Counted from the first letter of the stretch, positions 7,275-61,086 are shown. The stretch is 64,000 nucleotides of DNA from Cyanidioschyzon merolae (GCA_000091205.1 AP006483.2), one strand, 5' to 3'. Notes: generated from the letters alone by a model not told the origin. Numbers and translations: made by a program.

Positions 7275-8323
7275 ACGCGGGAATAGCGAATCGCGGAATA
7301 TCAGTATCGTTCCTGCAACCATTGCCCAGCAAATCCTTCCCAGTGTACCAGTACGGCGCTGTCGCCTTGGTGCAATGCTGAACACCACCGTACCCGTGCC
7401 AGGCTCCAGGCGGAAATCCAATGCCGTCTATCCCGGGGTACGGATTCATTGGCATCGAAAGCCTTGCGCATCCCAGCACAATGCCAATAACGTGTACCAA
7501 ACAATCACTTTAGACGCCCGCTCGAGACACAGCCGCTGGACGCCCCGAATGCCCCAGACTCTTCTTCCGAATGGTGATCGAGGTGTCCAGGTCTCGGTTC
7601 AGAGCGAAAACACTGGCCGGCACGGCGGCTACTGGCATCACACCCTAGCAAGCATCTCACCAGGTCGAGTCCGTCGGTACATGACACTCGATCAGCTTAC
7701 CGTACACCACAGAGTGTACCGGGCTCCGTTCTATCCGCATCTTGTCAGCCTGATTCAACGAGCACTCATGCTCGTAATGCAGGTATGTCGCCCTGGAGGC
7801 ATCCACGGGGGTCTAACAAGAATCAGTCGCTGCACTTATCGTCCGTTCTCGTCCACGGGACGCGAATGGAGGCCACGCGCACTGCAACCCGTGCACCGTC
7901 ACAGGCTACCACTCACAGAGGCGTCTTGCTAGTCATTTGGCTTCGTGCCGCTCACGGAATAAGTTCGTGAATGCACGCTCCTCGCTGCCGTACACGAGAC
8001 GCAGTCTAGGACTCCAGCACTCTATCATGTACGCCTGTCCAGGGATCGTCCGCAGGAGCCTGCGGGACGCTGACGCACGCGCTGAAGCGCGGAATCCCTC
8101 GCATCAGTCTTCGTGTTTTTCGGTGGCATTCCGGTGAGCGGACAGCGCCTACATCAGGCGCGCTCCACACGGACTCGGTTACTCTTCTGGGTTTCGACTC
8201 TCGTTAGAAACGCTTTGGAGCTTGCCTCGAGTGTGCTGCAATCATTAGCATCGCAACTCGACGCGCCACTGTATTCGGGATCAGCTGGGCAACGTCGTTC
8301 GACGTGTTGCCAGCGTACTGCAT
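7275..8323. repeat. Copy 2 of the ~1.04-kb direct repeat
   Basis: See copy 1. The two copies have the same orientation and lie 5.8 kb apart. A purine-rich tract (7190-7235) sits ~40 bp upstream. Confidence 0.85.
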
Positions 8324-19628: not shown

Positions 19629-20228
19629 GCCTCACCGACACCGTTCAGAACCAGGCGGAAGCTGCAGAAGCTGGATTCGCCACCGAAAACCCGACGGACG
19701 AAAGACTTGAGTCACGTCGGACCCGTCTCTGGAATAGAGAAAAAAGGTTTTGGCCAGTTTATCGTGACGTTGTCGAGCAGGCGTGCGCTGCGCCTCAGGG
19801 CGTGTGCTCCAGAGGCAACGCCAGTGCCGATTGGTGCCGGCGCACCGTATACCGCACTCAACTGAAGCGTGTTCCACACAAAGGTGTGTGGAAGTCGATG
19901 CTTTTTTCGTTGTATGTAGCAGACGCTATCGCAGGTCGTTCATTAGACGTGATAAAAAAATCTAAGGGAATGGTATGGGGGTGCTATGCGGAAATCCCGG
20001 AAGGCTTTCATTGCCGGGTTGAACAAAACTGGAAAGCCGTGCCGAGCATAGAGGAACGGGAAAGGACGATGCAGCAGAAGCAATCGCGCGAGGCCGGACG
20101 TTGAAAAGGATCTCGAAAGACGACAGTACGACGGGATGGTGGTGAAAGCCTCTTTTCTTGGCCATAGCTAGTATCCCTACAAAAAAAAGTTACGAGAAAC
20201 GATCAGAAACCTTGTCGAGTCGTATTCA

Positions 20229-20783
20229 ATGAGTATTATTGAGGCTTCTTCGGGACTGGTGCATATGGCGAAGGAGATGTACGACAATGTGACGGACATT
20301 CGAAGAGTCAAGATTCCGGACGAGTTTTTCGACAAGACCTTTATTCGTCACCTTGTGCTTGGTACAGGGGATGCGCGGGGTGAAAATGAGCGGGTGCACG
20401 TCCTCCACGAAAACTTTGCAGAATTCCGCTTCGAGGGTAATCGATACAGGGGTGACGCGGATGCTTACATATACGGGGCGATGAAGTATCTCACGAATCT
20501 GAAGAACCATTTGACAATGAACGTCGAACGTTTCATGATACGCCCCGTGTTTGCACTTTACGCGGGCATCTCTCGCAAAGGAATATGGGCAATTATCAAT
20601 GGCTTTACAAACAATCCCCAGCATGAAGATGAGGTTGAATTCGTCGACAAGAAGGCGTCACACAGGAGAAGGAATGAAGCTTCTGTAATCCGTGCGCCTA
20701 CTAAAGAGCACCGCGCAGAATTGGGACTGGCGAATCCAGCAGAAAAGATATCAGAGTTGAAAACAGATACGGAAAGATACTAA
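20229..20783 (+). CDS. Fanzor/TnpB-like nuclease, segment 1 (N-terminal, putative WED/REC-like region)
   Basis: ATG at 20229, 184 codons, ends at TAA 20781-20783. The next segment is in a different frame that opens at 20855. The join could be a short intron (for example GTAATC at 20685 to AAG at 20866) or a frameshift. Confidence 0.45.
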   Translation: MSIIEASSGLVHMAKEMYDNVTDIRRVKIPDEFFDKTFIRHLVLGTGDARGENERVHVLHENFAEFRFEGNRYRGDADAYIYGAMKYLTNLKNHLTMNVERFMIRPVFALYAGISRKGIWAIINGFTNNPQHEDEVEFVDKKASHRRRNEASVIRAPTKEHRAELGLANPAEKISELKTDTERY

Positions 20784-20866
20784 TATCTCATCCTGCGGTA
20801 TTTCGTGTTTTTGGACCGCGAGCTCGAACGCAAGGCGGAGATGATGCTAAGTGAGGAAAAAATGAA

Positions 20867-21646
20867 GTGCGGGAGAGACGGAAGGCTTTCCGAATGGGGG
20901 AGCGCTCCAACATCGTTCCGTTGTGCAACATCAAGTCACATTTTGTGCGTATTGATTCCGGCGTCCTTTACGGCATCATGAAGGGGATCTGTCCGGGGTT
21001 CGATGTAAGGAAGACAGAGTTCTCCGGTGAAACCCAGGAGACGTACTGGAAGAATATCTTCGATATCAAACGTCTCAAAGTGAGCAAGAAAAAGAAATTC
21101 ACTGGGATGATAGAAACTGATGGACTAGCCATATGTGTACACTATCGGCGGTTCAAGACAGATCGGCATGTTCCGTCTTCGGCTTTGCCCGAGACGAAGC
21201 ATGAAGATGAGAAGGAGGAGGATCCTGCGATGCAGAACGTGCAGAAGAACGACTTTTTCGTTGGCGCGGACCCCGGGAACACGAACATCGTAACCATCGC
21301 AGTACGCAGGCGTGCGGAAGATGGTACTGATGGTACCTTGCGTCGGAAAGAAATGCGTCTATTGAGATTCTCTAGAGCGAGATACGATCGAGAATGGGGA
21401 ATCATGAATGCGAGGAGGAAAATCGAGACTTGGAATGCAGGAGTGAAAGAGCACCTGGAAGCTATGAGCGAAGTGACGAGCCGCGAAGCAGACTTGAAAG
21501 CTTTTCGGGAGTCCATGGAAGTTCGCGTTGCGCATTGGGAGGCGCTGTGGGCGGCGGAGTATACAAAGCCCCGGTGGGCTCGTTTGCGAATGAATTTGTA
21601 TTTTGGGAAACAGCGTGCATTCGCGAATTTTTTTTCAATGAGTTGA
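20867..21646 (+). CDS. Fanzor/TnpB-like nuclease, segment 2 (RuvC-I)
   Basis: Contains [21 protein letters not shown] (RuvC-I Asp). It overlaps segment 3 in another frame. A T8 homopolymer at 21628..21635 is a candidate frameshift point. Confidence 0.55.
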
Positions 21647-22130
21647 GCGCCTTGAAGGAGGATGAAAGTCAGAGGCTCCTAGTAGCATACGGAGCAGGGC
21701 GATGGAAGATCCAAAAAGAAACTATGCCAGCTCCAACGACGAGAACATTCAAAGAGTGCGCAAGGCGCTTCGTTACGATACCTGTAGATGAGTTCCGAAT
21801 GTCCTACACACACCATGAACTGGGATGTACACTTCAGAACGTCGAGATGGAAAAGTGCCAGCGGAGCCCTGAGGAGGATATAGCAAAATATGGACCGCTG
21901 GCGGAAGAGCAAATGGAAAGGAGAGCGAAAGCTCGAGGACTACTTGCATTAGTAAGTACAACCAACGATGGCAAGAAACGGATGGAGTTTGTGAATCGAG
22001 ACTTGAACGCCGCGATCAATATACGGGGATGGGCGGTGATGGAGCATAAACCTCCAGACAGGACAAGAGTGAACTTTATCGGACAATCACTTCAAGTCGA
22101 ACTATATGAGAAAAAGTTGAAACCAGTAGT
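21394..22130 (+). CDS. Fanzor/TnpB-like nuclease, segment 3 (RuvC-II, zinc finger, RuvC-III); ancestral stop at 22128-22130
   Basis: Contains LLVAYGAGRW ... FVTIPVDEFRMSYTHHELGCTLQNVEMEKCQ ... KKRMEFVNRDLNAAINIRGWAV. Comparison with copy B (aaaaagccaagccgatag) shows a 1-nt insertion in A (aaaaagttgaaaccagtag). This shifts the ancestral TAG out of frame, so the track ORF reads through to 22365. Confidence 0.6.
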
Positions 22131-23055
22131 CGTTGGCCGGTCCAAAAAACTGGGAGGCGTCTGCACGTCACTTGGAGACTTCTTGTCTAGGGCAGGCTTC
22201 TCGCCACTATTGTACCACTGGCAGCAGCGTTTGTCTTTTGAAAGGCGTTTGTTGTTGGAGGTGGGCGTGAACGAAGGCCACTGTGAAAAGTCTGCGTCAA
22301 GTCGCTTTTTCTTTCGTACTCCCAGGCCTTCTGCAGCTGAGCAAACTACTGAACCGAGCGCTTAGGGCGACTCGGGTTTCTGTGAGAGGCAGCCCGCGGT
22401 TGGTATCATGGTGCGGCACACGCCTCGGCGAGGTTCGGGTGTGGGCACTGCAGCCCCAGCGGTTGCGTCCACATCCAGAGCAAAGCACGGACCTGTTGCT
22501 GCAACAGCGGTGCCACAGCAGGCATCCACACCCCCGTGCGATGTCTCTGGAGAGGACCATGCGTCCCAGCCAGGCGCCTCAGCGGAGACGCTTGAGGTGC
22601 CCAGCGACTTTGGGTGCGACGACTTGCGCCCTGCAGCAAGCGCAACCCGGGATTCGGGCAAGCACCTGGAGCCGGACGCCGAACGGTTTGGCTCTTTGGA
22701 ACAGGTGCGTCAGGAAGCCGAAGCAGGAACGGAACTGACGCGCTCTGCACTGGGTCCTCGCCAAGTGCGGAAGCGAGTGGTGCAGCGTCGGTCCGCGACA
22801 GGCGCTGCAGAGCGAGCCCCAGTGAGTACGCACCCGCCGTCTGATGCGGCTCCAAGGAGCGGCACCTCTGTCGGAGGAACCAACACAGGACAGAGCGGGC
22901 AGGATGCTTGGCACCCAGCGGGTGCTTCTGGACCGGATGCCCCGGAAACCCCAGCTGCGTTCATCACCAGTGCTGCTGTTCCCGAAAGCACCGGTGCTGA
23001 TCTTCGTTGGACGCCTGCTCCCTCATCGGAGCATCTCACCAGAGGCGCTGTCGTC

Positions 23056-30004: not shown

Positions 30005-31936
30005 ATGAGTTTGCTGTTTTCGTCCGCAGCTGCCTACAGCTCTGCCCGCGGACAGCGGCAGGCACTGGCGAGGGTTTCTTGCTGCCACGGTAGCTGGCGT
30101 TCGGAGCGAGCCCCACACCTGCCGTCAGCCGCCACCAGCAGGGTGCAGCCGCGCGCAGCTCGTCTGCCTTGGCGCATGGGAACGGACGCGCCTCCGCGGT
30201 CTGCTGAACCGGCTCCCGACTGGGATGGGCACCAAACTTTGCCCCGGTCTCATAAGAGTCCCTCTTTCCCACCGGACGGTCCGGAGAGTACCAGCGATGA
30301 GCGCACACGAGTTCTGGCGTTGGCGAACGAAAACGAACCTGAGCGAGCGCTTGCGCTCTGCACCACGCTCTATCAGCGCGGCGTTGCTGTGGATACACAT
30401 GCGTACACGTCTATTCTGAACGCCTACCGCCACAGAGGTGACGCTGACGGAGTGGTGCACGTGCTAGGAGTGATGGCGGCGCGCGGCGTGCCTGCGAGCG
30501 ACGTTACCGCACTGCTCGCTTTTCGAGCACTTCGAGATGCCCGCCGAGCAGACGCAGTGGTGCGCGCTGTGCAGCTCATTGAGAGTTCAGGTGGCACCAT
30601 TGGCCTTCGAGGATGGAGTAACGCGCTCTCCTGCCTTGCCGAAAGGATCCGCTCGTTACCCGCCTCACATCCGGACCTGGACACCTATACCAAAGCGGGC
30701 TGGACGGTACTAGCGCGCATGCAGCGCATGCGACAGCATCGGAAGCCGAATGCATATGTATTCAACTCGTGGATGGCAATGTACGCGTCTCGAGGCGACT
30801 GGGACGGCGCAATGGCAGTGTTCGGAGCTATGGTTGCCGGTGCTCGGGTATGTCCCGATGTTGTCAGCTACAACATCCTCTTTGAATGCCTTGCGCGCCG
30901 CTTTGCACGAACAAGGGTTCCGGCAGAGCGCGATGCCTGTCGAAAACTTGAAGCAGCGCTGGTGGAGTCCATGCGCTTGCACGGTATTGAACCAGATGCG
31001 CGGACGCTGTCGGCTCAGTTACGACTTGTTGAGCATGACCTCCACGCCGTACGCGCGATCGAGAGACGTGCCCTCTGGTACGGCGTCCGACTTGATTCTT
31101 TCTACGTGAACGCTTTAATTGATGCCTACGCTCGTATTGGTGAGCCAGCCGTAGCAGCAACCGTGCTGGAACGCCTCGCCGTCCACCATGATCAATGTCA
31201 AGCGGCAGCAGCGCAGGGACGATTCTCAGCGGAAACCGCCGCCTGTCCAACGGCGCTGCCGCCGATCACTGCCTACGCTCTGAACGGCGTGCTGAAAGCG
31301 TGTGCGCGAACCGGTGACGCTGAGCGTGCCTGGAAACTCGTACAAGGGATGGAGGAACGTTTCGGCATTCAACCAGATGCCATCTCGTTTACCTGTGCCA
31401 TAACAGCAGCGGGCAAGGCGTACGCGACGACGCTTGCACGCCATCTCTACGAACAGGCACGCGAACGCCTTTCCGACAAGGCGAACGTACGCTTGGCGAC
31501 TGCTGCGATCTTGGCAGAGCACGAAGATCCGGAGCCTGCCATTCGAGTATTCGAGCGGTTGCTACGCGATGCCGAGAAACTTCCATCAGCAGGCGCGTCT
31601 CTGTCTGGGTCATCCGCATCCGGCTCCATGGACCTCAGGGTACCTGTGCAGGCGCTTGTGCGCGTGTGTGGTCGAGCCCGTGCTCCTGCGCGAGCCAGAG
31701 AGATAATTTTAGCTGTCAAGCGGAGGCGCCTCTGTTTTATTGACTTGACCTATTACCAGTCGTTCATGAAAGGTGTTCAGGAATCGCAGGAACGTCGTCG
31801 CAAGCAGGGCATACGCGATCTGACGCCCCTGTCACCGCTCTCTGCACCATCACTCTACCTCTTGAAACTAGAGTGCACTGCACTCGGAGACACCCCGAAG
31901 ATTGGTAACTATGGTTCATCGTGGACGATTCGGTAA
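30005..31936 (+). CDS. Pentatricopeptide repeat (PPR) protein, probably organelle-targeted
   Basis: Repeated ~35-aa PPR-like units (YTSILNAYRHRGDADGVVHVLGVMAARGV; YVFNSWMAMYASRGDWDGAMAVFGAMV; VSYNILFECLARR; FYVNALIDAYARIGEPAVAATVLERL; ALNGVLKACARTGDAERAWKLVQGMEERFGIQPDAISFTCAI). ATG at 30005. Confidence 0.6.
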   Translation: MSLLFSSAAAYSSARGQRQALARVSCCHGSWRSERAPHLPSAATSRVQPRAARLPWRMGTDAPPRSAEPAPDWDGHQTLPRSHKSPSFPPDGPESTSDERTRVLALANENEPERALALCTTLYQRGVAVDTHAYTSILNAYRHRGDADGVVHVLGVMAARGVPASDVTALLAFRALRDARRADAVVRAVQLIESSGGTIGLRGWSNALSCLAERIRSLPASHPDLDTYTKAGWTVLARMQRMRQHRKPNAYVFNSWMAMYASRGDWDGAMAVFGAMVAGARVCPDVVSYNILFECLARRFARTRVPAERDACRKLEAALVESMRLHGIEPDARTLSAQLRLVEHDLHAVRAIERRALWYGVRLDSFYVNALIDAYARIGEPAVAATVLERLAVHHDQCQAAAAQGRFSAETAACPTALPPITAYALNGVLKACARTGDAERAWKLVQGMEERFGIQPDAISFTCAITAAGKAYATTLARHLYEQARERLSDKANVRLATAAILAEHEDPEPAIRVFERLLRDAEKLPSAGASLSGSSASGSMDLRVPVQALVRVCGRARAPARAREIILAVKRRRLCFIDLTYYQSFMKGVQESQERRRKQGIRDLTPLSPLSAPSLYLLKLECTALGDTPKIGNYGSSWTIR

Positions 31937-33719: not shown

Positions 33720-33995
33720 ATCGCCAGCGTCGCCGCCGCCAACGCCATCGCTGCAGGCAGCCGCAAGGCATTGAGATTGTGATCGTTTCCTGGAGCGCGC
33801 CTGCGTTGCTGCAGTGCAGATATTTCTGATGCGCCGCCGCCGCCGCCAACGCCATCGCTGCAGGCAGCCGCAAGGCATTGAGATTGTGATCGTTTCCTGG
33901 AGCGCGCCTGCGTTGCTGCAGTGCAGATATTTCTGATGCGTCGTCGCCGCCGCCAACGCCATCGCTGCAGGCAGCCGCCAATCCGCCTTCAATCG
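33720..33995. repeat. Minisatellite, 107-bp unit x ~2.6
   Basis: gccatcgctgcaggcagccgcaaggcattgagattgtgatcgtttcctggagcgcgcctgcgttgctgcagtgcagatatttctgatg recurs at 33744, 33851 and 33958. Confidence 0.85.
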
Positions 33996-35526
33996 ATTTT
34001 TCGTTGGATATAAGGTTTCCATCGTGGACCACGGATGCCGGATGGCGAGTTGACTACGGGCATTCGCGAAAGCGTCCATGATTCTTTACTCTGCGTCCAT
34101 TTTCCATGATCCGTACTTCCTCCTGAGTGTACGAATCGTTTTGGTGATTCCATCGTGCGCTGAGCGTCTGCTCTGCTGCACCCGCAATGGCGCCTATATC
34201 CTAGTGCGGATACAGCTCGAAGACAGGACGAGATGGTCATATGAATGAGGGCGCCAGCTCGAGGCATGATTCATTCAATACGGGATCGGAATTCACCATC
34301 TTTCTGGGAGCCTGCGTACTGCGCAGACAGACCAAGTGCGTGCGGCAGTGCGAAGCGATACGCTAGGAGCAAACGCTACCAGCGCGACACCGAAATGCAC
34401 TCCAGCCACTCCTAGTCGCAGAACAAAATGCGCTATGAACAAACTGTTCAGATGTTGCAACAGGACCGGGTACTACGGGATACCTTGCTTCAGTTTTAAG
34501 CGCCCGGTGCCGTACTTGGCGATTATGAGCGTCTTCCAGGCGATCTCGCCGACAAGTACACTGTGCGCTGTACACGCAAGATCACGCTGTTCCATGCGAT
34601 AGCGCTGCTGTGGAACGCGATGTCGTCGATGATGAAACATCTACCAGAATGAGAATCCAGATCAGAAAAGCATTCGAGAGATTTTTGGCTGAGTGTATGT
34701 TCCATTCGTGCGAAGCGGTGACGCTCTCTCTATAAGAAGCGATCACTGCACCGACTCCAGTCTGAATGCAAGACCCTCTCCCTTGCAATCGGAAAGACGG
34801 GGAATGCCCTGCCATTCAATGATGCTGCTGGTGCTGCTCCTATTGAATGCCGCTCCGTCGATGGTTTTACAAAGACACACGAGGATTCGGCTGCGGAACG
34901 GGTTGATTATTCGGCGCAACAAGTTTCATAAACTACCGGCATACGCTAATGAAAAAGCCTTCAAGGCATGATGAAAATTTTCTACTCGTATATCCAGCAG
35001 AACGTATCGTGGCGCCCACGAGTTTCCTTCCAACAGAAAGATTCAAGGCTCGAAGCATGCGTGATTCGGACACGCTGACTGTAAGGAAAGGCAACGAATG
35101 GAGGCCTGTACTTATACATTGGATGGTGATATCCGTCATTATATGAAACCCCTTGTTCGAGAGCGCCACGAGTCATCTTGACGCGGGTGCCGTCACGCAT
35201 TCCAACGGCAATACGTCAACGTATCCACTCCAAAAGACCACCGAGTATGCCGAGACTGCGCATAAATCCGTATGTTCTTGTTGCTGAGCTTTGAATGGCT
35301 AAATAGCGCATCTGAAAAGCGTTCTGAAAAATTCTGAAAGGCACGAACAGAGCAAGCACTTCTACATCCATTCTAACCTGACACGAGCGTAGCGCCCAGA
35401 CGCCAGCCAGCGTTGTCAAGTTCCACGATAATCCGGCTCGTTCACAGGCGTTATCGGGCGCCATCATGGGACCAAGGTGGGCCGGTCCCGTTGCGCTCTT
35501 TTCTCGACAGTGGCCCCAGCTTCGAT

Positions 35527-37529: not shown

Positions 37530-37849
37530 GATTTTCGTTTTTCTTGACAACACAAATATCCGTTCGTGAATGAATTAGGGAAAAGCGTTTCGCGGTATCA
37601 TAGCGGGAGATGCTACCGCTCACTCAAGAACAGTGCCCCAGCGCATCCCAAATTAGATCCTCCGCTTGGTGCACCGACACCGCACACGCCGCGTTGGAGG
37701 GTAATCGCAGGCGGCACTGTTCATTGTTGTTCAACTTAATTGTGTTCCGCCCCCAGGTGATTGATATCAAATGGCATTTCGCGGCGCATAGCGGATGCGC
37801 TCATCCTTCGCTCATTCTCAAACCAACGAATTCCAAGCTACAGGTACAG

Positions 37850-38323
37850 ACATGGACGTCAGAGATCCCGCGGAGCCGTCATCGCCGCGTGCCAGAGAAA
37901 TCCGTGCAAAATACGCTTTTCATCGACTATCGAGCGTCGAAGAGGAAGAAGAACAAGAAGAGGTGAGGTAGGCGAGAAAAGATGCTTGCCCGACGGGACG
38001 ATAACGAGACTGTATCGGCCCAGAGGGCACGTGTTCGAGGACTTGTCGCGTCGGTGAGTTCAGGCAGCGGCAATGCACGCAATGAGTTCGTGAACCGGGA
38101 CTTTAGCGCCGCTATGCAGAGTAGACGATTTGCGGTGCTGAAGATGAGATTCGAGGAGCTGACGCCATCGAACTTTATGGGGCAGCCTCTCTGGCTCGAA
38201 GTGTGCCTGGATAAAAAGCCAAGCCGATAGCTAGCGGCCGGTCGAAAAATGCCAGGAGGCGTCTTTGAGCGGGAGTGCACATACACTCTATGGTTGAGGG
38301 ACATTTTTTTGCTTCATTGACAT
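37850..38323 (+). mobile_element. Fanzor-family 3'-terminal remnant, copy B (Tc1-like junction plus RuvC-III end plus right-end tail)
   Basis: Encodes ...SGSGNARNEFVNRDFSAAMQ... (RuvC-III remnant) ending at TAG 38228-38230. Then ggaggcgtct ... ttcattgacatg (38323), a right end shared with copy D. Upstream ~37700-37900 is homologous at DNA level to the transposase-tail region of copy D (gatcccgcggagccgtcatcgcc). Confidence 0.6.
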
Positions 38324-41300
38324 GTGGAGCAATCGTGTTCACATGACCGGTGATTCGCTGCAGACGGGTTCAGGAAACGACGGGGCAGCAGGAGAAATGC
38401 ATCGCCAATCGGATGCGGTGGATCGCGGCACCCTTCTGGTTGACAGACCGTTTACGGAAATCAGGGATGCCCTGTTGTACACCATGGGTAAACGCAGTGC
38501 CGTGATCGGTGGAACACCTGTGCGAGGACGCATTTTTGCTATTTATGGATGGCTTTTTTTGCGGATAGTCAATAAAAGGAAGGTATTCTATTGGTTGGAA
38601 AAAGTTCGCTGAAAGACTTGATGCCGTCACTGCGAGTCTGCAAAAAAAGGTCTTTTTTGTCCAAGTCAGTTCTTCTACGCTCAGCAAGCGGATGAAGCGC
38701 ATTTCTCGTTGTCCATATTGTAAAGGCCATGCACCCTAGACGGAAGTTGTTAAACCGCATCAATACGACTGTCTTCGGGTATATGCATTCTACTCCATAG
38801 ATTGTTTGACGAATGCTGATACAGAAGCCAAAGATTCTGAACTTTCCGAAACAATGACACGAATGGTGAAGAAGAAACGGGCGCGGAGAAAGAAAAAAGC
38901 GCGCTTCTCTGGGAGATCGTCGGGCGTTGAATGATACACGGCAGGTTCTATCATGTAACGTGACCGCCTATAGCAGGAGCGACGCGTATTCGTCTCGTTC
39001 GATGGGACATCATTCGGGAGAAATCGCAGTCTTCTATGTAGATGCTTAAAGAGAGGCAATCTGCTGCTCGCTAATATGAGAGAAGCGAGCGTGACGAAAC
39101 CATGACCCCGAACGGCAATCATACCGAGTGGGCGCCCAGCATTCTCTCAACGGACAGAGTTGTTGAACGCCTCCGGCTTTGTTGAAGCGCTCTTCATGGC
39201 ATCTCCTTCCAGCACTCTAAAGTCCTGCTATAAAAGAAAACCACATTCCATCAAGAAGAAACGGTGAAAGCGTATGCAGCTGAAACTGGCTTTGATCTGC
39301 TCTTCGTGTCAGCGTATTAGACTTGCTTCCGTCTAGTCAAAGACGTCTCCTCTGTTGCCAAACGCCATTTCTATGTCCAGCGCACGATAGACGGCTCGTT
39401 CGCATCCGTGACACCAAAGTTCTGTGGCAAGTCGCTCGCTGTTACCTTCACCAGTCCTGAACTACTGTATTGCCCCCGAGCCCGTACACGACATCGAGCG
39501 TAGAGGTGCGCTTCGGTCTGTGCGCGTGATCGCGACGCAGAACGGAACAAAAAACCCTGCTGGAATACGCAGTGCATTCGTAGAGGAGGCGCGCTTCAGT
39601 GCAATCGATCATCCAGATCGTCTGAGAATCTAAGAATCAAAGAGATGCGGAGTGTAGCGATCACAAGCGTGACATCCCACCATGTAAAGAACACAGCGAC
39701 AAACGAGATGAGGTAGAAACCATCCGACAAAGGAGAGGCAGATCCCGCAGAAAAACAACGAGGACGAGGAGGGACAGCGATGAAAACCTGTCGGAGCAAA
39801 ATAGTCAGTTTGAAACCACTGTCAAGGTTTCGCTCCGAAAAATGCAGCGTGGGGATTCTGCAAAACAAACCGAGATGCAGAGCGCCATGATGGATAGTAT
39901 ATAGCTTCGTACTCGATCAAGGCTCGCCTAGCTTGCCTCACCATGAAGCGTCATCTCGAGGAACGATTTCTAGACGTTCCGGATGCAGGGCTCCCATCTG
40001 TCCATATTCCCCTGGAAGTTCTCGATCAGACCTTCGTGCGCTAACACAACTGGTGCTCGGCACAGAAGCGGCAGTACGGCCGGGATCGGAGGATCAGCGA
40101 TTTCGGCACGCGCTTCTCAGAATACCATGACGAGTTGCCATGCCGTATCGGCGATGGGCACAATCCACTGCGCAGTTGCCGAAAATCATCAAAGCAATCT
40201 CGAAAACCGTATGCGAGATAATCAAGAGGGTTTCATAGAAAGCACGCAGTGGGCGTTGCAGCCTCACCAGACTGACCCAAACATGAGGAACTTCATGAAA
40301 GCGGCTCTCCAGTTCGGAGATTACACGGGCGTCAGAATGGCTCACGCGAAGGAGCTTTGGCGGCAGTGCATGATACTGCGCTTTGGATCACCATCGGTTT
40401 CGGTTGTGCGGAGGCAAGAAGCTTGGATTCGCCAATTTGTTCAGCGAGCTGGAAAAGGAAACGATCGAGAAAACACGGCGCGAGCTCGTGGTAGCCTATG
40501 GAGCTGGACCTGCGGTACCAGGCGCGCGCCGCACCCCTGGCCCTTCGACGACAGCAAGCAGCAAGTGCAGGCATCGATTGTAACCGATTCTCATCCTTGG
40601 ATTCAGAAGGATCGAACCGCATCACGAGCACGGTCACACGCTGGAACAGGTAGAGAAAATGAACATGAAACGGATCCAGATGCACGAAACGGTAAACACT
40701 AAGATGGCTGAATATCGATTGGTGAGGCAATCGAGATTTCCTGGCTTCGTATGGTGTGATTCCACCAGCAGCGGAGCGCGCGAGCTCGCCATGCACAACC
40801 TCGTGAACGCCTCGATCCACGTCCGGAAATGTCGTGTGTTTCCGGAGCGCCCAGCAGCATTGCATCGAGCGAACTTTCAAGGAAATCACTGAGTATTCAG
40901 TGTGGACGTAATGCTGAACCGCTGAAGAGTCTCGATGAAAAACCAGCGGCCGTCAGAGGTGCATTGGATGCGCATCTAGAGCAATGCAATGGACTGGTAC
41001 GCGTTCGTAATGCAGAAAGGAATGGATTCCCGATATATACAACGAGAAAGGTTCTCTCGGACAATTGGTGATCGCTCACGGTAGTCCATTACTCGAAATT
41101 CCTCTGTGGCTGCTTTCATTGTCTGCAGAGAGGGATCGCATCGCACGTAAGATCAAGAAATTATAGACGAAGCATCCGGGGCCTACTGCCAGCGAATCTT
41201 CATATTCAAATGAAAGTCCATGGAATGGTGGCAGCGGCACTGGCGGTGTTAGATTTATGGAGACTGGAGGACATAAGGCGCAACCATGAAGGCTCCCTCG

Positions 41301-43289: not shown

Positions 43290-43836
43290 GCGCTGCGCCC
43301 CCGACGCAATTCTCAAAATCGCTGTGCGGAATTCGGAGCGCAGTGCCCCCGATGCACAGCCCTGAATCCCTGGGGGAATTCTCAAAATCGCTGTGCGGAA
43401 TTCGGAGCGCTGTGCCCCCGATGCACAGCCCTGAATCACTGGGGGGGAATTCTCAAAATCGCTGTGCGGAATTCGGAGCGCTGCGAACCCGATGCACCGC
43501 CCTGAATCACTGGGGGGAATTCTCAAAATCGCTGTGCGGAATTCGGAGCGCTGCGAACCCGATGCACAGCCCTGAATCCCTGGGGGGAATTCTCAAAATC
43601 GCTGTGCGGAATTCGGAGCGCTGCGAACCCGATGCACAGCCCTGAATCCCTGGGGGAATTCTCAAAATCGCTGTGCGGAATTCGGAGCGCTGTGCCCCCG
43701 ATGCACAGCCCTGAATCCCTGGGGGGAATTCTCAAAATCGCTGTGCGGAATTCGGAGCGCTGCGAACCCGATGCACAGCCCTGAATCCCTGGGGGGAATT
43801 CTCAAAATCGCTGTGCGGAATTCGGAGCGCTGTGAA
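43290..43836. repeat. Satellite array, ~62-bp unit x ~9, EcoRI site (gaattc) twice per unit
   Basis: gaattctcaaaatcgctgtgcggaattcggagcgctg(tg/cg)(cccc/aacc)cgatgcacagccctgaatc(c/a)ctgggggg is repeated head-to-tail with point variants. Confidence 0.9.
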
Positions 43837-44089
43837 TGGTATCCCTCGTAGAGATGCTATGGATGCTATTCTTAAGAGTGATGGTATGAATGTTGACGAT
43901 GATTCTGCTTCCCGTGTCGCTCGCAAACGTTCGTGCGATTGCAGCAGCGCGTTCCATGTGCACAGCTACGTATCCGGTTGGAGATTGTGCGAGACATTGC
44001 AGGAGTCTCACGTGCGTGCATGTCGTCAGGCTTGATGACGAATCGTTTACCATGGAACATTGCTGCATCTTACGGACGTTCAATGCAAT

Positions 44090-45480
44090 GCTGTCCAATT
44101 CCCGCTGAGTGTAGTCGACTGCTTTTTCGCAGCGTTGAGCAGGAGATCGAAACCGCTGTAGGATGTACCCGATAGATCGTAGCCGAATCGCTTGTCGGCT
44201 ATATTTTCCCTACTGGAGCGTACAAGCAGGATTGCATTCATCATTCAGGAAGGCCATACCGCAGTACTCAGATGATTGAGGAACAATGAAACAAAGAAGT
44301 ATCTGCGCTCTACGTCAGAAACTGATTTTGTCAAAGACTGTTTGCTGTCCATGGGACAAGTAACAACGGTTGATCATCTTACGGGACGCAAAAGCGACGA
44401 TCGAAGCAACCACGCATGTCACGGTTTCGCAGAAGCTGGCGCGTGCGGACCCGAAAACCCTGGGATACAATCGCCAAAAAAGTTCTAGTTCACGCGCGGC
44501 CATCTTCCAACGAAATCTCAACGACAGCATTCCTGGAACTTTGCGACCGGTGTGAAGCACAGGAGCATCGGTTAGTTCTTCCAGTTGATGACGCTTGATT
44601 TGGCCGAAACAGTCAGAGCGTATGTGGGTAATCGCGGGGCGCGGAGCCCGTTATATGAAAGATCGGACTCGAAAAGACGGACATCATCATGTGTTCTAGC
44701 TGCAGAGGATCTTTTTGGCGGCCTCAGTTTCGCAATTGGAGAGGACTCGTACACCACCGACCACTTCGTCGATTCAACGAAGACGTTTCCCTGGAATCTG
44801 GCGACGTCCTTCTATTGGACAACGTTTCATTTGACCATTCCCATTGGGTTCGAGCTTTTGCCGATCCTATCGGGGTAGAGGAGCTTTTCATTCCTCCGTA
44901 ATCTCCGTGGCTCAACCAGATTGAAAGAGTTTTTTCTAGTCCGAAACATAATGATCGCTCCACTGAGCGTTTTGCCGAAGCGTTCAGCTCACGATGTCAA
45001 ACCAGGGCGCATGTCGTCATTGTTGCACAGGTGCTTCTACCTCCTGCAATGACTTCATCTATGGGCATAAAGGAGCCAGTTCATTCAAAAAAAATTCAGG
45101 GATGAGCTTCGGTATACACTAGAGAAGGTCGAGATGGAGAGAGGGCAGCGGAGCGCTTCGGCGACAGGAACGCATTCAGAGCCGACGGAGTAGCAAATGG
45201 TAAAAAAGGCACGAGTCCGAGGAATCCTTGCATCGGTGACTTCAACCAGCGGCAAACAACGCATGGAATTCGTGTACCGAGACGTCAACGCTGCTATCTG
45301 TACCAGAAGATGCGTGGTTCTGAACACGAGCTCAGAAGAGATGACGCGATCGCACTTCGCGGTGCAGCTTGCAAGGCTCGAAGCGTACAATCGAAAACTG
45401 AAGCCGGTAGCATTCCGCCGGTCCGCAGAGGCGAGAAGACGACTGTGAGTGAGTACCTATATTGACCCTCCATGGACTTC
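44090..45480 (+). mobile_element. Composite degenerate element, copy C: Tc1/mariner-type (DDE_3) transposase remnant fused to Fanzor 3'-terminal fragment
   Basis: The 44585..44940 region encodes ...SGDVLLLDNVSFDHSHWVRAFADPIGVEELFIPP*SPWLNQIERVF (the DNxxxH ... LPPYSP.LNPIE signature of Tc1/mariner/IS630 transposases, with stop and frameshift). The 45125..45448 region encodes EVEMERGQ...GKQRMEFVYRDVNAAIC (Fanzor zinc-finger/RuvC-III remnant, Cys to Gly). DNA is homologous to copy D throughout. Confidence 0.65.
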
Positions 45481-47012
45481 AAACATTTTTCGTTGTACTC
45501 TACATAGCAGAAGCCGCTGGATGCTCGAATGCTGTAGGCCGCGGGGCACGAGGCTGTAGATCCACTGTCAAAATGTTCTCGTTGCCCGAATGCCAGATCC
45601 GACTTCCAGCCCAGCACCACGGTTAGATTCAAGGAGATTTCAGACAATTGATCGTTGCACGACTACCAGACCAGACATTCTATCGGGTATCACGGTCAGA
45701 TTCAGGGATTTTCCAGATACAGAGCCTACCGTGGGTATCTACTGTGGCATTGGAAGCTCCGCTTTGAATGCCATACGGAGACAGCACGGCTTCACAGGAA
45801 GCGCGTCGGGTACTCGAATGTTCATCGCCAAGGCACGCAGTACTCGGGTACGCTACACGCCAGTTTCGCATCAGGCTGTGAGGGCGGCTTCAGAGCGCCC
45901 GACGTGCTTATCATATAGACCTCAATACAGCGTCCAGTTGACGCTCAGGGTGCAGTAACTAGGGTATGTGTGTGTTATGCTTCCCGCTCTGCCAGACACG
46001 ACGTGTCCAGCCCGAACGTCCCAGTTGACCGTGGCGTTCGTGCTGTTGAGAACAAGGCATGGATGCACTTGGGCCACGCCTGGGCCACCTCGAAGCAGTC
46101 CCTTTACCAGTGCGCCCGGGGCACGCAGTTGGTCCCAGCTGCACGTCACCGCCAGCGCCAGAGGCTTTGGAAACTTTTACTGGTTCGTAACGCAATGCTG
46201 CATATCAACAGTTCTCCCGTATGTTCTGGCGACTTTGGGTGCAAGATGCAAAGCCACAAGCCCACAATGACGGATGCACGAGCTGCGAATATGCATCGAT
46301 ACATCTGAACATCCTCGAGTGCGTTCACCATGGCCGCATGACCCTCATCGCGAATGCTGAAACGGCATGGCAGCGTTTGCCACAGAGTTCAGCAGCAGTC
46401 TGGGACGATAGCTTTTGCGCTGGCACTTATGCCATCACGACGCCAAGGTGTGCAAGGCCCCGAAAATGCCGGCGGTTCTCCGCGCCACTAGGAATCCGTT
46501 TCTCGACCGCATGACGAGAAAGAGAATCCGAAAACGAGCAAAAGAGGCGGCTGTACCTGCGCCCTCTGGTCACTGTCGTTTATGGTTAGAGGCATGCAAT
46601 TTCGATCGCGTTCGGGGTGTTTCGGCACCGGTCCGGCCCTGAGCAAAACCGATGCCAGCTGTCTGCAGCAACTGCCCATCATGGTATTCAGGTCTGCATA
46701 ACGAAAAACATATCGTTCGCATAGAAACCTGCGTAGCATACCAGGCTCTAACGCAACTCCCGATACGGTATGGATCTGCATAGCTGCTATTCGACCTGGA
46801 CGGCACTTGCGCAATATTCCCCACGGTAACGAACCGAAGCGCGCAAGACCGCAGCGATCAATGTGAAGAGGCCATGCACCGGGCTATCGCGTTTCCAGGC
46901 ATTTTCCACGTTCACACGTTGCAGCACAACCTGATTCGTCTCGAAATCGAATGATCGTGTCCGGTGCTCCAAGCAATCAGCATGCTGTAGTGCACAGTTC
47001 GTACAAAGCGGA

Positions 47013-48131: not shown

Positions 48132-49521
48132 GTACCCCGCAGCGCAGACGACGGTGAGCGGTGTGTGTCCCGGTGATCGAGTCCCAGCGTGGCGTTCCAG
48201 CCACTCCAGCCTCAAACCAGAGATAAAGCGTTCAACACACCGGTTAACTCGGTCGATAACAGTGTTTCAGGGCAGGGTTACGTAATCCCGTTACCCTGGC
48301 ACCGACGCCGCGGCGCTCATGGACGCAGGTGCTTGGATGCCGAGCACGCGGCGAATGTAGTTGCGATTTCGCTTCCGACAACAAAAACGCTTACATGGAC
48401 CATGGATCCAAACTTGTGGGATGTATAGGTATTTGCTTTCTCGAGAGCATCCATCATGCTGCTGTGCTTTACCTCCAGGTTCCACTACTGATAGTTCCTC
48501 TCGGATGTACTGGTCGTTTCGTGCGTTCTATCGTGCGCCGGGCGCCTGCCTTGCTGCACCCGCAACCGCAGCGACACCGTTGGTACGAATGCATCAACGA
48601 GGTCGAACGGCATTCTCATATCACTGAGGGCGTCTGATCGACGCGTTTTTCTGTACGACACGAAATCGGATTTCATCATCATTCTGGGGGCCTGCAAGCT
48701 GCGCAGACAGGTACATTGCCTGCGACAGCGCAAAGCGGTCTACTAGGAGTCCAGTATGACCACCACGACACCTGGATGCAGCCTGAATAACCTCAGTCCC
48801 AGAATAAACTGCGTTTCGGACGAGTTGCTGCTCTGAACTCACCACGGCACTCGCTACTGCTGAGGCAGATAATGCGCGAGTCGAGCAGACTCGTCCGACG
48901 TACTGGACCTGCCTCCTAGGAGGTGAATTTTCGATAATATGGAAACCTTTTCACACTTTTCAACGTTTACCGCAGAGGAGTAAAGAAGCTGTTGTCTCGT
49001 TGCTAGTTCGTGCCTAGATTCTAGGCTTTTTTTCTGTTTATAGAGTGCGCCGCGTGCACGCACTGCAATCTCGCACGCAATCCGCACAGCGACGTGCGCG
49101 GCAGCGGGCGCTTGTGAGAACGCACTCATAGCCTTGGCGCTCGCCCGCTCTACGCTTATACTGCTCGTGTGGAGTCGTGCTCCGCACTCGCTCAGTGCAG
49201 GTAGGAAGTGGTCGTGTGTGTACACTCACAACGCACTTGTGACCTGTGCGAGCGCTGTACATAACGCGCTTGGTGTTTGTCAAGCGCACAGGAGTTGGCG
49301 GAGACCGGCATCGAGTTCAACACTGCGCTACGCGCTTCTGCGCTGGCTACGACAGAACGCGGGTGCGGCACCAGGAAACACACGTGCGTTCTAGAGAGGT
49401 ACCCGTTTCCTGTACACTGTAAAAGCGTACGTGACGGCGCTTTGGTCCTGGGCGGGTGGTGTTGCAAAGTGCTTTCACGCGTCGTTTAAACCGTCTGCCA
49501 AGAGTAACAGACGCAAAGACG

Positions 49522-58149: not shown

Positions 58150-59588
58150 CTTTTCCCCTTTTCTGGATGTAATCGAGTGCTTTTTTTTGTAGTGCATAGC
58201 AGGAGATCGCCATCAAGATGCAATGTACTCTATAGATCGTAGATGGATTGCCTGAAGGATACATGCTTTACTGAATCGTGCAAGGAGGACTGCATACCTC
58301 CTTAAAATGAGTCGTATCATAGTACTCAGATGGTTGAGGAACTCTGAAAGAAACAAGTATATGCTCTCGCGACAGAAACCCGATATTCCTGCCGGCTGAT
58401 TGCGGTAAACGGTAGTGAAGCGGTTCCTTGAACATCTTACAAGCAGCAAAAAGCGACCATTGAGGTCACGATAAGCGTCTCTGGTCTTGTCCAGCTCGTT
58501 CGAGTGGTCCTCAAATCACTGGAATACAGTTGCAAAAAAGTCCAGTATCACGTACGGTCATCTTCCAGTGAAGTCGCAACGACCGCGTTCCTGAAATGCA
58601 GCGATCCATACGAAGCACAGGGACGTCGCCTTGTTTTTTTCGGTTGACGATCGTTGCTTCGGGCACACTGGTCGGAACGTATATGGGTACTTGCGTCTGC
58701 GGAGCTCGTTCCATGTGCAATCGAACCCGTAGAGCGCGATATCATCATCTGTTCGAGCTGCAGTGGATTCATTTGACGGCTTCAGTTTCGCTCACAAAGA
58801 AGGTTCATACAACAGCACCAACCACGTTGTCGAATCATTGAAGACTTTTCCCTTGAAGTCTGGCATCGACCTTCTATTCGACAACGTCGCATTTCAGCAT
58901 GCAGCTTGCTTCAGATCTTTTGCAGATTATGTTGGGGTAGAGCTGCTGTTCATCCGTCCGTACTCCCGGTGGTTCAGTTCCGTCGAAAGAGGGTTTTCGA
59001 TCGCGAGACACAATGATCGATTCACTCGGCGAATTAATGATAACCGATGGGCATACAGAGTTCCGTCGATTCGGTGAAATAAGAAATCCCAGGGAAAGGT
59101 ATGGGCGTGCAAGTCGGGGATCCCGGCGGGCGGTCATCGCCGGCTGCCCAAGAAAAAAAACGAAAATATCCCGTTCTCACCGACCATCGAGCGAAGAAGA
59201 GCAACTGTCGAAGAAGACGACGCAAAAAAAGGGAGACAGATGAGAGAACGTGTTTCCCCGACGGGTCGAGGACGAGACTGTAGTAGCACAGGAGGCATGA
59301 ATTCGGGAAATCCTTGGAACAGTGCGTCCACTCAGCAGTAATGCACGCAAAGAGCTCATGAACTCAGACCGCAAAGCGCTTTCAACATCAGACAATGTTT
59401 GGTGCTGAAGACAAGACCGGAGGAGCTGATGCGAGCCAACTTCGTGCGGTAGCTTCTCAATGTCGAAATGTACAAGGAGAAACAAAAACCGACGAGAGGT
59501 TGCCGGTCGAAAACGGCTAGGAGGCGTCTGCGTCTGGGCTTCCATGCACTCTATATTATTGTGAAACGTTGTTTGTTTCATTGACATG
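58150..59588 (+). mobile_element. Composite degenerate element, copy D: Tc1/mariner-type transposase remnant fused to Fanzor 3'-terminal fragment with right end
   Basis: The 58763..59077 region encodes DLLFDNVAFQHAACFRSFADYVGVELLFIRPYSRWFSSVERGF (DDE_3 C-terminal signature). The 59300-59590 region is homologous to copy B (cagtaatgcacgcaa..., ggaggcgtct at 59521, ending ttcattgacatg at 59588). The 5' part is homologous to copy C (atagatcgtag...cagtactcagatg[ag]ttgaggaac). Confidence 0.65.
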
Positions 59589-59657
59589 CATGTAGTGGCT
59601 GCGTTCATGCGCACGTCCACCATTTCGTTCCGTAGCCTCAGAATCCGACAGCAATAC

Positions 59658-59693
59658 GCACCACCACCACCACCACCACCACCACCACCACCA
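59658..59693. repeat. (CCA)n trinucleotide microsatellite
   Basis: caccaccaccaccaccaccaccaccaccaccat immediately downstream of copy D's right end. Confidence 0.9.
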
Positions 59694-61086
59694 TCAACAT
59701 CACTACCTATCCATCTCTCTGGAGATCACGGGTCATTCGTGCGTTCCACTGGATGCGAAGCTGTGACGCCAATTGTCTCCAAACTTGGTTCGTGCATCTC
59801 TATGGTATACGCGAACGGTTGATGAGTCGGCCTTGAAGTAGTGCATACGGCCTCGAATCTCGTTTGGATTCAGTCCAATAGATTTGCACGAGCATCCGAT
59901 CGAGCGACACGGGATCCACGAAGGCGCGTTTCCCGTCCGGAGCAATGCACGTGGGCATCAGCTCGAACGCTTCGGACGTCGGCATGCGGTGCTGCCTCGT
60001 CTGCAGGGTCCGCTCCAGGTTCTGAAAATGCTGGATACGGCGAACGTCTTGCATCCATTGTCCCGAGATCGCAGACGCATACCAGTCGGTAAAGATTCTT
60101 CCTGGTGCAGCGCATGATGTTGTCCCCTGAAATTCCAGCGGACGCAGAAAACAAACTGGTAACCGGGGAACAGGCATCGCGTTTGTTTTCCACAGCGTCT
60201 GCCACGTTCTACCCGTATCAGAGAGGCGCCCTCGTACATGCGGCTCCATCGAAGCTGACCGATAACATCGCAGCAGGCGAGTCGCACGCTGCACATTCGT
60301 ACTGATCACCCGTTGAATACAGGGTATACACTGCAGCGCATGCACCCTACAAGACACTGGGGCGCTTCAACGTCGACTCAACTGCCGTGGCGTTCCGACT
60401 CGCACATCAGGTCTATGTGTGCGGACGCGGTTACCCATTTCCAAACCTGGACGCTCGGTGGGCATTGGGTCCCGGCCAGCGAGAGCGACAGCATCGGCAA
60501 ACGGGTATGCCCCTGTGTCATCATCCGGTTCTCTGGGCACCCCGCCCCCTGATTAGGATTCTCGGAAATAGAGTGCATCTGAATACGTGTTGGCACGCGT
60601 TTGGTCGATGAAGACGGCTCCGGCTTCACGACGCAAACCTGATGTGTTCCGCAAAGACGAAACCTCGCACACACGAAGGATTGCATGGCGTCGAAGCAGG
60701 TCCAAGTACCGTACCGGTCGACGCCAGAGAAAAAAGCGATGCCATGGCCGAGACTCGTCTCTTTCAGAGCCAAACTTTATGCACGCGTAACGCGCTCACG
60801 ACACTCTAGACGACACGGGGTTTGCTGCGGTGACGCCCGTGCACAGCGCGAATGATGCGTTCAGACGTGAAAGAGTTGCTCCGGCGTTTCCGATTCTTGG
60901 ATCCTCCCGCATGTTTACCAGAAAAAATGCTACCATCCCCCGGGGCTCTACCGAAAGTCGTCCACCCCAAGTTTCTCGCGACTAGGATTGAACACGCTCT
61001 GTGGACGCCTGACGAAAGCACGATCCGGGGCAGCGTTCAGCACAGAGTACGTTGCTTTGTTGGCGAGACTGCTGCCATGGTCTTGT

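Follow-up and report, generated by a model that had tools for sequence, protein, structure and literature searches.

The 3' ends of four dispersed copies of one Fanzor nuclease family (copies A to D) in a 64-kb stretch of DNA (64,000 nucleotides, hereafter the window) raise the question of whether the tail behind the nuclease gene encodes the scaffold of an omega-RNA, as had been suggested in a sequence-only reading. The whole window comes from the nuclear genome of Cyanidioschyzon merolae 10D. At 30005-31933, a PPR ORF exactly matches the C. merolae 10D protein XP_005535028.1, and the remaining long ORFs are intronless eukaryotic housekeeping genes; the exact protein match and these neighbours support a eukaryotic nuclear location of the Fanzor copies. 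All four copies, with the features described within them, lie on the plus strand.

Fold comparison with a predicted model indicates that the gene family is a true Fanzor1. Pfam gave a best match of only E = 0.33 for the Fanzor protein, and neither phmmer nor hmmsearch with a 12-sequence profile recognised it against the PDB, so the assignment was made by fold comparison, the one approach that recognised the protein. The AlphaFold model of a homologue (P0043; pLDDT 77, pTM 0.65), which aligns with the conceptual protein of copy A at 40% identity across 87% of its length, matched SpuFz best (E = 7.8e-16, TM 0.60/0.67), followed by PpFz, GtFz and then Cas12f. Across the three solved Fanzor1 structures, SpuFz, PpFz and GtFz, the E-values ranged from 8e-16 to 3e-14 and the TM scores from 0.47 to 0.67, which upholds the family assignment proposed from sequence. 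Additionally, the RuvC residues D398, E569 and D636 do not vary among 12 homologues, and the corresponding D…E…D motifs of the family (GxDPG, VDEFRTS and NRDxNAA) are present in copy A. RuvC-III is the sole RuvC motif kept in copies B (NRDFSAA) and C (YRDVNAA), while in copy D it is degenerate (NSDRKA); the retention of the NRDxNAA region, previously claimed for B, C and D alike, thus holds for the first two.

Bao & Jurka (2013, Mob DNA 4:12; PMC3627910) have already published both the Fanzor family and its 3' terminus, as the C. merolae Fanzor1 transposon CMe-1A, and the right ends described here are an expected case of a known kind. CMe-1A was reported with approximately 150 copies of about 80% identity to a 3169-bp consensus, without terminal inverted repeats (TIRs) and with target site duplications (TSDs) not determined; it has its 5' 635 bp in common with TE-N2_CMe, and a methyltransferase role was proposed for it in 2013, before omega-RNAs were known (PMC3627910). 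In the supplementary consensus of that study, the ORF ends in …GRSKKTGRRLHVSWRRFV before the stop (in a longer view …GGRSKKTGRRLHVSWRRFV; an intact CMe-1A Fanzor has 734 aa), the TAG lies within GTCTAGGGCG, and the 3' terminus is …GAAAGGCG, also given as …GCAGCGTTTTTCTTTTGAAAGGCG (PMC3627910). The present analysis adds to the 2013 paper the RNA reading, the hairpins, the internally deleted mini-Fanzors and a mariner-linked subfamily. Solo TE-N2 copies, matching the CMe-1A/TE-N2 consensus, were found at 34027-34467 and 48384-49012. The Fanzor ORFs are under purifying selection, which for CMe-1A spans hundreds of copies from C. merolae 10D and related hot-spring strains.

Judged by its sequence, copy A is a pseudogenised CMe-1A copy. 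Its Fanzor1 pseudogene (19975-22190) shows 78-88% identity to the CMe-1A consensus (78% over consensus positions 955-1120 in the 5' coding part, 88% over the last 157 nt) and 80-84% identity to metagenome copies. Its reading frame is interrupted by a stop codon at 20781-20783 and shifted near 20860, near 21630 and, through loss of 1 nt from an A-run at ~22145-22150, in the last codons; the TAG that ends the ORF in the family corresponds to 22188-22190, and NRDLNAA and the other RuvC motifs are retained. Upstream of the gene, the 5' leader of the CMe-1A core unit, which is non-coding and diverged here, spans 19650-19974 with an approximate left edge; the upstream regions were aligned with 23 metagenome copies. 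The 635-bp TE-N2 part is missing from copy A, since an acyltransferase ORF (supported by the ORF and a Pfam match) ends at 19628.

Related copies outside the window were collected by scanning metagenome contigs with the C-terminal protein alignment, and 80 of more than 370 matches were taken as loci. The loci derive from a small number of JGI metagenomes, show 74-81% protein identity and evidently represent related Cyanidioschyzon populations. Among the window copies they match copy A alone, and their flanks are never shared. In these 80 loci, identity drops from ~0.6-0.8 to background right after …GAAAGGCGTT, a few nucleotides past the terminal hairpin (the A-type end), and at least 31 distinct 3' flanks, that is, independent sites, have this one boundary in common. 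Mean pairwise identity along 48 non-redundant tails was 0.84, 0.82, 0.83, 0.80, 0.75, 0.76, 0.71, 0.71, 0.65 and 0.58; beyond the end it falls to 0.29 and stays there. The information past the end is below 0.7 bit per position for nine positions and then ~0, the flanks being variable from +1 to +10 onward, and two loci (L073 and L080) are 98% identical as far as …GAACGGCGTT, with no relation beyond. The non-coding tail from the stop codon to the right end measures ~60 nt. In copy A, a covariance model of the A-type tail, trained on 32 sequences, matched 22157-22249 (…GGCGTT) with 89 bits, the published consensus end corresponds to 22247 (2 nt short of the right end mapped here), and no related copy aligned to copy A extends beyond 22256. 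Because some subfamilies share 8-13 nt past the A-type end (TGGTG[CT]G, TTCCAGGGGT, TGTTCGTGGT), copy A is taken to end somewhere from 22249 to ~22257. The sharp right end proposed for the family is thus borne out, and almost certainly the tails are where Fanzor1 transposons end on the right. A longer repeat that had simply decayed, which had been named as an outcome that would speak against such an end, is excluded for the A type, since independent sites break at one boundary. At the other end, the CMe-1A core unit begins with a hairpin ~268 nt 5' of the ATG; T-rich or GATTTTT-like sequence precedes the left end of TE-N2/CMe-1A at 15 sites or more, and core-only copies showed no common motif at their left ends. 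From the T-rich sequence, a T-rich TAM would be predicted.

Copies B and D belong to another branch. The CMe-1A consensus matches B, C and D over just 34-74 nt, and they are therefore regarded as a diverged sister subfamily. Copy B (37828-38324; ATG at 37852, with premature stops) and copy D (59083-59588; ATG at 59101) are mini-Fanzors carrying the same internal deletion. Each retains, besides its 3' end, a 5' leader, about 55 N-terminal codons and the last ~95 codons, and since the N-terminal and C-terminal parts meet at an identical breakpoint, the two copies are internally deleted, non-autonomous derivatives of a common ancestor. They had been described as mere 3' remnants, a description that their 5' parts contradict: positions 19955-20017 of copy A align with 59081-59143 of copy D, with the protein start MxVxDPxxxSSP… in common, and in copy B leader similarity to the family consensus may extend back to ~37720.

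The abrupt 3' end common to B and D was confirmed. Both end in …TTCATTGACATG, a sequence found at just these two places in the window (38313-38324 and 59577-59588), so that the right end given earlier for D (59588) is correct and that for B (38323) was off by one base. Over 514 alignment columns, B (37828-38324) and D (59083-59588) are 66% identical, and the 100 nt beyond their ends are at shuffle level (25% identity ungapped; gapped 0.44 vs 0.43 for shuffled sequence). The end could in principle be shared by chance, or mark where a longer segmental repeat has decayed, as the modest identity of the two copies and a second 12-nt identical run elsewhere in the alignment, which equals the terminal one and exceeds all others in length, would allow. 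Against this stand the unrelated flanks, the probability of ~0.66^12 = 0.7% that the B/D alignment would close with 12 identical nt, and, for the family, the single boundary at 31 or more independent A-type sites with the published consensus within 2 nt, which together make such an origin most improbable. The B/D end itself is real but poorly defined, because it is known from two window copies and one diverged relative, the mini-Fanzor of metagenome locus L075. Homology of the B/D right end to the published TE-N2/CMe-1A 5' end was also considered and is no more than a lead, the local similarity being marginal for D (p ~0.01) and not significant for B and C.

The tails of the two branches do not form one alignable RNA family, as had been assumed for the four copies. 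Tails of the B/C/D type are ~30 nt shorter than A-type tails and can be aligned with them solely over the coding part. With filters off and E<=10, the A-type covariance model found nothing at B, C or D and no extra solo tails in the window. Copy A had been credited with a tail homologous to that of B and D, with the sequence ggaggcgtct; this is indeed present at 22153-22162 in A, as it is at 38255-38264 in B and 59520-59529 in D, but the relatedness is limited to coding sequence. In the family consensus, GGG AGG CGT CTG encodes G R R L 10 codons ahead of the real stop, so that ggaggcgtct falls within the last 13 ORF codons with the TAG 30 nt downstream. Gene calls on many related copies and the published consensus run through it to this TAG, and it is in frame in A and D. 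It appears after a stop in copy B only, because B has premature stops, and a conserved post-stop motif, as read before, does not exist at this place.

Copies C and D also contain sequence unrelated to Fanzor. The upstream part of copy C (44110-44964) is a Tc1/mariner-type DDE_3 transposase pseudogene (Pfam DDE_3, E = 6e-11, 42.8 bits), reading …LLLDNVSFDH… and IPP*SPWLNQIERVFS, and the upstream part of copy D (58168-59026) is a degenerate Tc1/mariner-type pseudogene 68% identical to it. The first ~900 nt of these copies, previously counted within them, are thus a dead transposase gene. Copy C continues with a Fanzor 3' fragment and a diverged tail (45102-45508); the fragment matches 21815-22017 of copy A, its ORF ends with a TGA at 45446-45448, and the right edge of the tail is tentative. 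Copy C is a separate deletion derivative within the B/D subfamily. The composite of DDE pseudogene and mini-Fanzor recurs in two metagenome loci (L075 and L067), and in a third (L014) the mini-Fanzor stands alone.

This arrangement offers another explanation of the B/D end, in which …TTCATTGACATG is the right TIR of a Tc1/mariner-type element, the Fanzor gene is a passenger and the mariner transposase sets the end. In C, D, L075 and L067 the DDE_3 pseudogene immediately precedes the Fanzor unit on the same strand, Fanzor1 genes within Mariner elements are already published, and by eye there is a weak inverted match of 8/11 bases near the left edge of C (44074-44090). Nevertheless, no TA duplication was found at the ends of B and D, where the next bases are TG and CA, respectively; no inverted copy of the terminal 12-mer with up to two mismatches was found near 44090 or 58150; copy B has no mariner part upstream; and the two or three copies examined yielded no convincing TIRs for the mariner-linked C and D. 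We consider this origin of the end unlikely, and even if it were true, Fanzor omega-RNAs normally cross the right TIR.

Folding of individual A-type tails revealed three recurring elements: a hairpin at the stop codon, a GC-rich hairpin behind it and a terminal hairpin. The first (P2) has the form AGAC(G)…(C)GTCT with 4-5 bp. In copy A it is AGAC-loop-GTCT across the stop codon (22176-22188); in 32 family members 91% of the cells are paired, with one compensatory AGGC/GCCT variant. The second (P3), following the pattern GGCGNG-loop-CNCGCC, is GGCAGG-CTT-CTCGCC at 22191-22205 in copy A, was predicted by RNAalifold, has 93% of cells paired in the 32 sequences and is a candidate for stem-loop 1 of a scaffold. 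Its inner pair is G-C in 14/32 and C-G in 12/32 sequences (28 vs 25 on 69 tails), and on a star-like tree built from the coding DNA next to the tail the two states occur scattered; the swap may come from a single ancestral event that left two old haplotypes, since reshuffled by recombination. The pairing of this hairpin in the 32-sequence alignment was reached by 0/500 shuffles. The third element, at the very end of the tail, is a G.U-rich hairpin of 10-20 bp, in two types, CGTCGTTCGA-CTT-TCGAACGGCG (type 1) and ACGTTTTTC-TTTT-GAAAGGCGT (type 2), which pair one set of aligned columns in different registers. Copy A has type 2, per-sequence folds giving CAGCAGCG..TGTCTT-TTGA-AAGGCG..TGTTGTTG at 22222-22257. 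Interconversion of the types takes seven substitutions and turns a perfect 10-bp stem into a perfect 9-bp one, whereas no more than 2.6% of random 7-substitution derivatives fold equally well. RNAalifold on MAFFT tail alignments recovers the post-stop GC hairpin only; it misses the terminal hairpin because length classes and the two registers scramble the sequence alignment.

Of the B/D-type tails, that of copy B has a hairpin GAGTG-CACATA-CACTC (GAGUG-CACAUA-CACUC as RNA) at 38273-38288, and that of copy D has a different one, the terminal hairpin GUGAAACG-UUGUU-UGUUUCAU at 59561-59581 followed by UGACAUG. The L075 mini-Fanzor forms GUGAAAUG-UUUAU-CAUUUUGC, with a U-A pair where D has C-G, and has lost the 12-mer.

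Further comparisons gave a mixed picture of the tail structure. When 69 distinct tails were aligned with the covariance model, which also recovered the 88 known tails of the loci and a few on further copies, 82.7% of cells paired, against 34-49% with slid partners, and 12/19 pairs showed two-sided changes; the covariation score was 0.176 vs 0.127 for shuffled alignments (reached by 0/500 shuffles), in an alignment fitted to the very structure being scored. The sense strand folds more stably than the antisense in 31/33 copies, a bias that G+T-rich composition may partly explain. Relative to dinucleotide shuffles, the folding z-scores were +0.77 for A, +0.59 for C, -0.83 for D and -2.4 for B (family mean = -1.2), so that among the window tails copy B alone folds more stably than shuffled sequence. 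Hairpins with some compensatory change are conserved in the family alignments; individually, A, C and D fold no better than shuffled sequence. Swapping 3' arms between copies did not weaken the outer stem (own -21.4 vs swapped -20.2 kcal/mol), so no outer stem is claimed. The tail is conserved at 0.58-0.80 and third codon positions of the adjacent ORF at 0.65-0.84, and because the levels are equal, common descent of transposon copies explains the conservation of the tail. Third-position conservation did not rise toward the 3' end of the ORF, the signal of an overlapping RNA, and Rfam gave no match in the window. Taken together, the swaps in the GC hairpin and the two-register terminal hairpin provide moderate structural support for a tail RNA.

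Fanzor systems in which the RNA has been characterised provide a template for these tails. Omega-RNA came from this region at all tested Fanzor loci (20 loci, ten organisms), and that of GtFz1 overlaps 17 codons (Saito et al. 2023). The corresponding fRNAs adjoin the right end in every tested case, and Mariner/Tc1 elements are among the associated transposons (Jiang et al. 2023); two stem-loops before the guide can suffice for Fz1 omega-RNAs (Xu et al. 2024). The C. merolae tails fit this template, with a post-stop stem-loop, an end stem-loop and a variable flank. A literature search covering articles and supplements found no description of a C. merolae omega-RNA. With a probability of roughly 60%, based on this analogy and on the moderate structural evidence, we propose that the tails encode, or once encoded, an omega-RNA scaffold. 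Of the original case for such a scaffold, the position at the right end of a true Fanzor1 and the conserved hairpins stand; the supposed motif turned out to be coding and the conservation ordinary. The tail outliving most of the ORF, which had been counted as evidence for an RNA, is not specific to it, because deletion derivatives of any DNA transposon must retain both ends.

The retention of both ends bears equally on a second reading, in which the tail is solely a cis-acting transposon end, the terminal hairpin with the few bases behind it being a cut or termination signal for a transposase acting in trans, and guide RNA is not produced. Precedents for such a signal are the hairpins at the 3' end of Helitrons and those near the ends of IS200/IS605 elements. 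A sharp common end is typical of every transposon family, internal-deletion derivatives would keep it with or without an RNA, and the tail is conserved no more than synonymous sites. Furthermore, the core unit also opens with a hairpin, T-rich sequence, resembling the reported Helitron2 targets, adjoins the composite left end on its 5' side, and the lack of TIRs in CMe-1A (PMC3627910) agrees with this reading. On the other hand, G.U pairs would be A.C mismatches on the opposite strand, and sense folds better in 31/33 copies. No HUH or other transposase adjoining A-type copies was seen in the ORF lists, and purifying selection on the Fanzor ORFs implies an active nuclease, which would need a guide. 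A role as cis end is moreover compatible with an RNA role, since TnpB and Fanzor elements have a right end that overlaps the omega-RNA. As a full account of the tails, this reading has perhaps a third of the weight that we give to the scaffold.

The tail might also be the ordinary 3' UTR of the Fanzor mRNA, with hairpins serving transcription termination or 3'-end formation. Its place directly behind the stop codon, its shortness (~60 nt), its moderate structure and the order of a GC hairpin followed by U-rich stretches are what such a UTR would show. This would leave the element boundary at the foot of the last hairpin unexplained, however, and omega-RNA was obtained from this region at 20/20 tested Fanzor loci; we regard it as improbable, slightly more so than the mariner TIR discussed above.

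The history and proposed function of the copies are as follows. In a diverged sister subfamily of CMe-1A, one internal deletion took most of the nuclease gene and spared both termini, and B and D are old derivatives of this kind; in C and D a dead transposase gene of the Tc1/mariner type precedes the Fanzor unit. Under the preferred omega-RNA reading, and by analogy with SpuFz1, GtFz1, PpFz1 and bacterial TnpB, a sense transcript through the 3' end of the ORF and the tail could be processed to an omega-RNA, with the tail stem-loops as scaffold and 14-20 nt of host DNA beyond the right end as guide. An intact Fanzor made elsewhere in the genome would then cleave flank-matching sites beside a target-adjacent motif; any RNA from the window copies would need the nuclease of another copy, because all four are pseudogenes. 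The terminal hairpin probably also acts as a cis signal defining the transposon end.

Among the closest known systems, CMe-1A is the same family in the same organism as copy A (78-88% identity), whereas its matches to B, C and D are short. SpuFz1 has the Fanzor1 fold in common with the C. merolae family, as judged from the homologue model; its elements have 30-nt inverted repeats and a conserved left-end CA, whereas CMe-1A has no TIRs and a hairpin end, and its RNA, TAM and cleavage were shown by experiment, whereas the C. merolae omega-RNA is a candidate. SpuFz1 also has 134 ORF-less 'ghost' elements with identical ends (Saito et al. 2023), whereas B and D retain part of the coding sequence. 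The likeness to ISDra2 TnpB (IS200/IS605) lies in a guide RNA, putative in C. merolae, whose template covers the 3' end of the nuclease gene and stops where the element does on the right, in subterminal hairpins and lack of TIRs and TSDs, and in a TAM that would be expected beside the left end. In contrast to ISDra2, the C. merolae family resides in a eukaryote, no TnpA-type Y1 transposase was seen beside the A-type copies, any ORF overlap would be much shorter, and no sequence similarity was found, Rfam giving no match. In PUl-1 and PGv-1 (Mariner/Tc1) the Fanzor gene lies downstream of a DDE gene as in C and D, but TA duplications and TIRs were not found in the latter. Non-autonomous Helitron2 elements of Chlamydomonas (CRe-1 to CRe-3) are alike in their end hairpins and T-rich left flanks, but neither a RepHel gene nor asymmetric TIRs could be identified in the C. 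merolae copies. The parallels with both groups are resemblances only.

It is also conceivable, though doubtful, that the CMe-1A core is a self-sufficient TnpB-style element, spread by Fanzor and its omega-RNA through guided breaks and homology-directed copying, or by an unrecognised red-algal HUH-type single-strand mechanism. This idea draws on the hairpin at each end, the lack of TIRs and of a transposase in cis, and the purifying selection on the ORF. If it were true, the 8-13 nt shared past the end by some independent copies would be traces of targeting.

The current picture of Fanzor/TnpB organisation is unchanged by the C. merolae tails. If the omega-RNA reading is true, a red-algal Fanzor1 with a very short scaffold (~60-90 nt, two stem-loops) would join the few that have been characterised, and its thermo-acidophile host could make it of interest where genome editors that are compact and tolerate heat are sought. 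The long-known persistence of intact ORFs in CMe-1A despite the age of the family would likewise gain a function.

TE-N2_CMe is a 635-bp element that makes up the 5' part of the consensus of CMe-1A, a Fanzor1 transposon (PMC3627910), and two solo copies of it lie on the plus strand of the window, at 34027-34467 (72% identity) and 48384-49012 (77% identity). At no fewer than 15 independent left ends of TE-N2 or CMe-1A, the approximately 10 nt located 5' of CGATGAC… are T-rich, with the stretch frequently reading (G/C)ATTTTT(C)..C. Such flanks are found in the window (48366-48376 and 33995-34005) and in metagenome loci with related Fanzor copies (L020 at ~3000, L055 at ~1440, L078 at ~1375 and L049 at ~2005, and further L026, L028, L063, L005, L007 and L009). 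This T-rich flank could represent a target preference, a candidate target-adjacent motif, or an element start about 10 nt before that of the published consensus.

The right end of the internally deleted mini-Fanzors B and D (AAACGTTGTTTGTTTCATTGACATG) is loosely similar, in direct orientation, to the published left end of CMe-1A (CAAAACGTTTACATTGACCATGG). In local alignment, D (59560-59588) matched positions 1-29 of the CMe-1A consensus with a P-value of ~0.01, and the similarity of the right ends of B and of C, a Fanzor 3' fragment, to the consensus left end was not significant.

Tc1/mariner-type DDE_3 transposase pseudogenes are located immediately 5' of internally deleted Fanzor units and in the same orientation. 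They were detected at 44110-44964 and 58168-59026 in the window, and the same composite was also found on other contigs, with the pseudogene on the minus strand (6140-5270 in L075 and 6001-5131 in L067). TIRs or TA duplications were looked for around the DDE_3-Fanzor composite and none was found. In these two metagenome loci, a minus-strand mini-Fanzor and a plus-strand full-length copy also meet tail-to-tail, their right ends ~13 nt apart (L075 4590-4660, L067 4470-4540). Tandem Fanzor pairs with ~3.7 kb spacing are present in L017-L020 and L037 (copies at ~271-777 and 4001-4507). At least three different kinds of recurrent modules were observed 5' of the core unit (CMe-1A minus its TE-N2 part), and a module with a Fanzor 3' remnant precedes several full copies (e.g., L014 1287-1454).

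Other repeats in the window include tandem arrays of a 70-nt unit (seven or more units, 43303-43906) and a 134-nt unit (4498-5060), a 300-nt duplicate with 98% identity and copies 5.8 kb apart (1443-1742 and 7273-7572), a 107-nt tandem repeat inside a GC-rich ORF (33728-33941), and a (CCA)n run just 3' of D (59656-59695).

In the Fanzor protein, acidic repeats of ~22 aa (…ATQEVEDNDLVVDVTKDEDEKEA…) are situated directly N-terminal to the RuvC-I motif, before GADPGNTN. Their number varies from one to more than five among homologous proteins (P0001, P0012, P0019, P0021 and P0023), and the decayed CMe-1A copy A has one unit. Over the 3'-terminal 169 codons of the ORF in the Fanzor copies of L002-L081, pairwise identity was ~0.87, ~0.90 and 0.72 at codon positions 1, 2 and 3, respectively. 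This pattern is the one expected of a protein under purifying selection, which agrees with the remark made in 2013 that old CMe-1A copies retain intact ORFs (PMC3627910).
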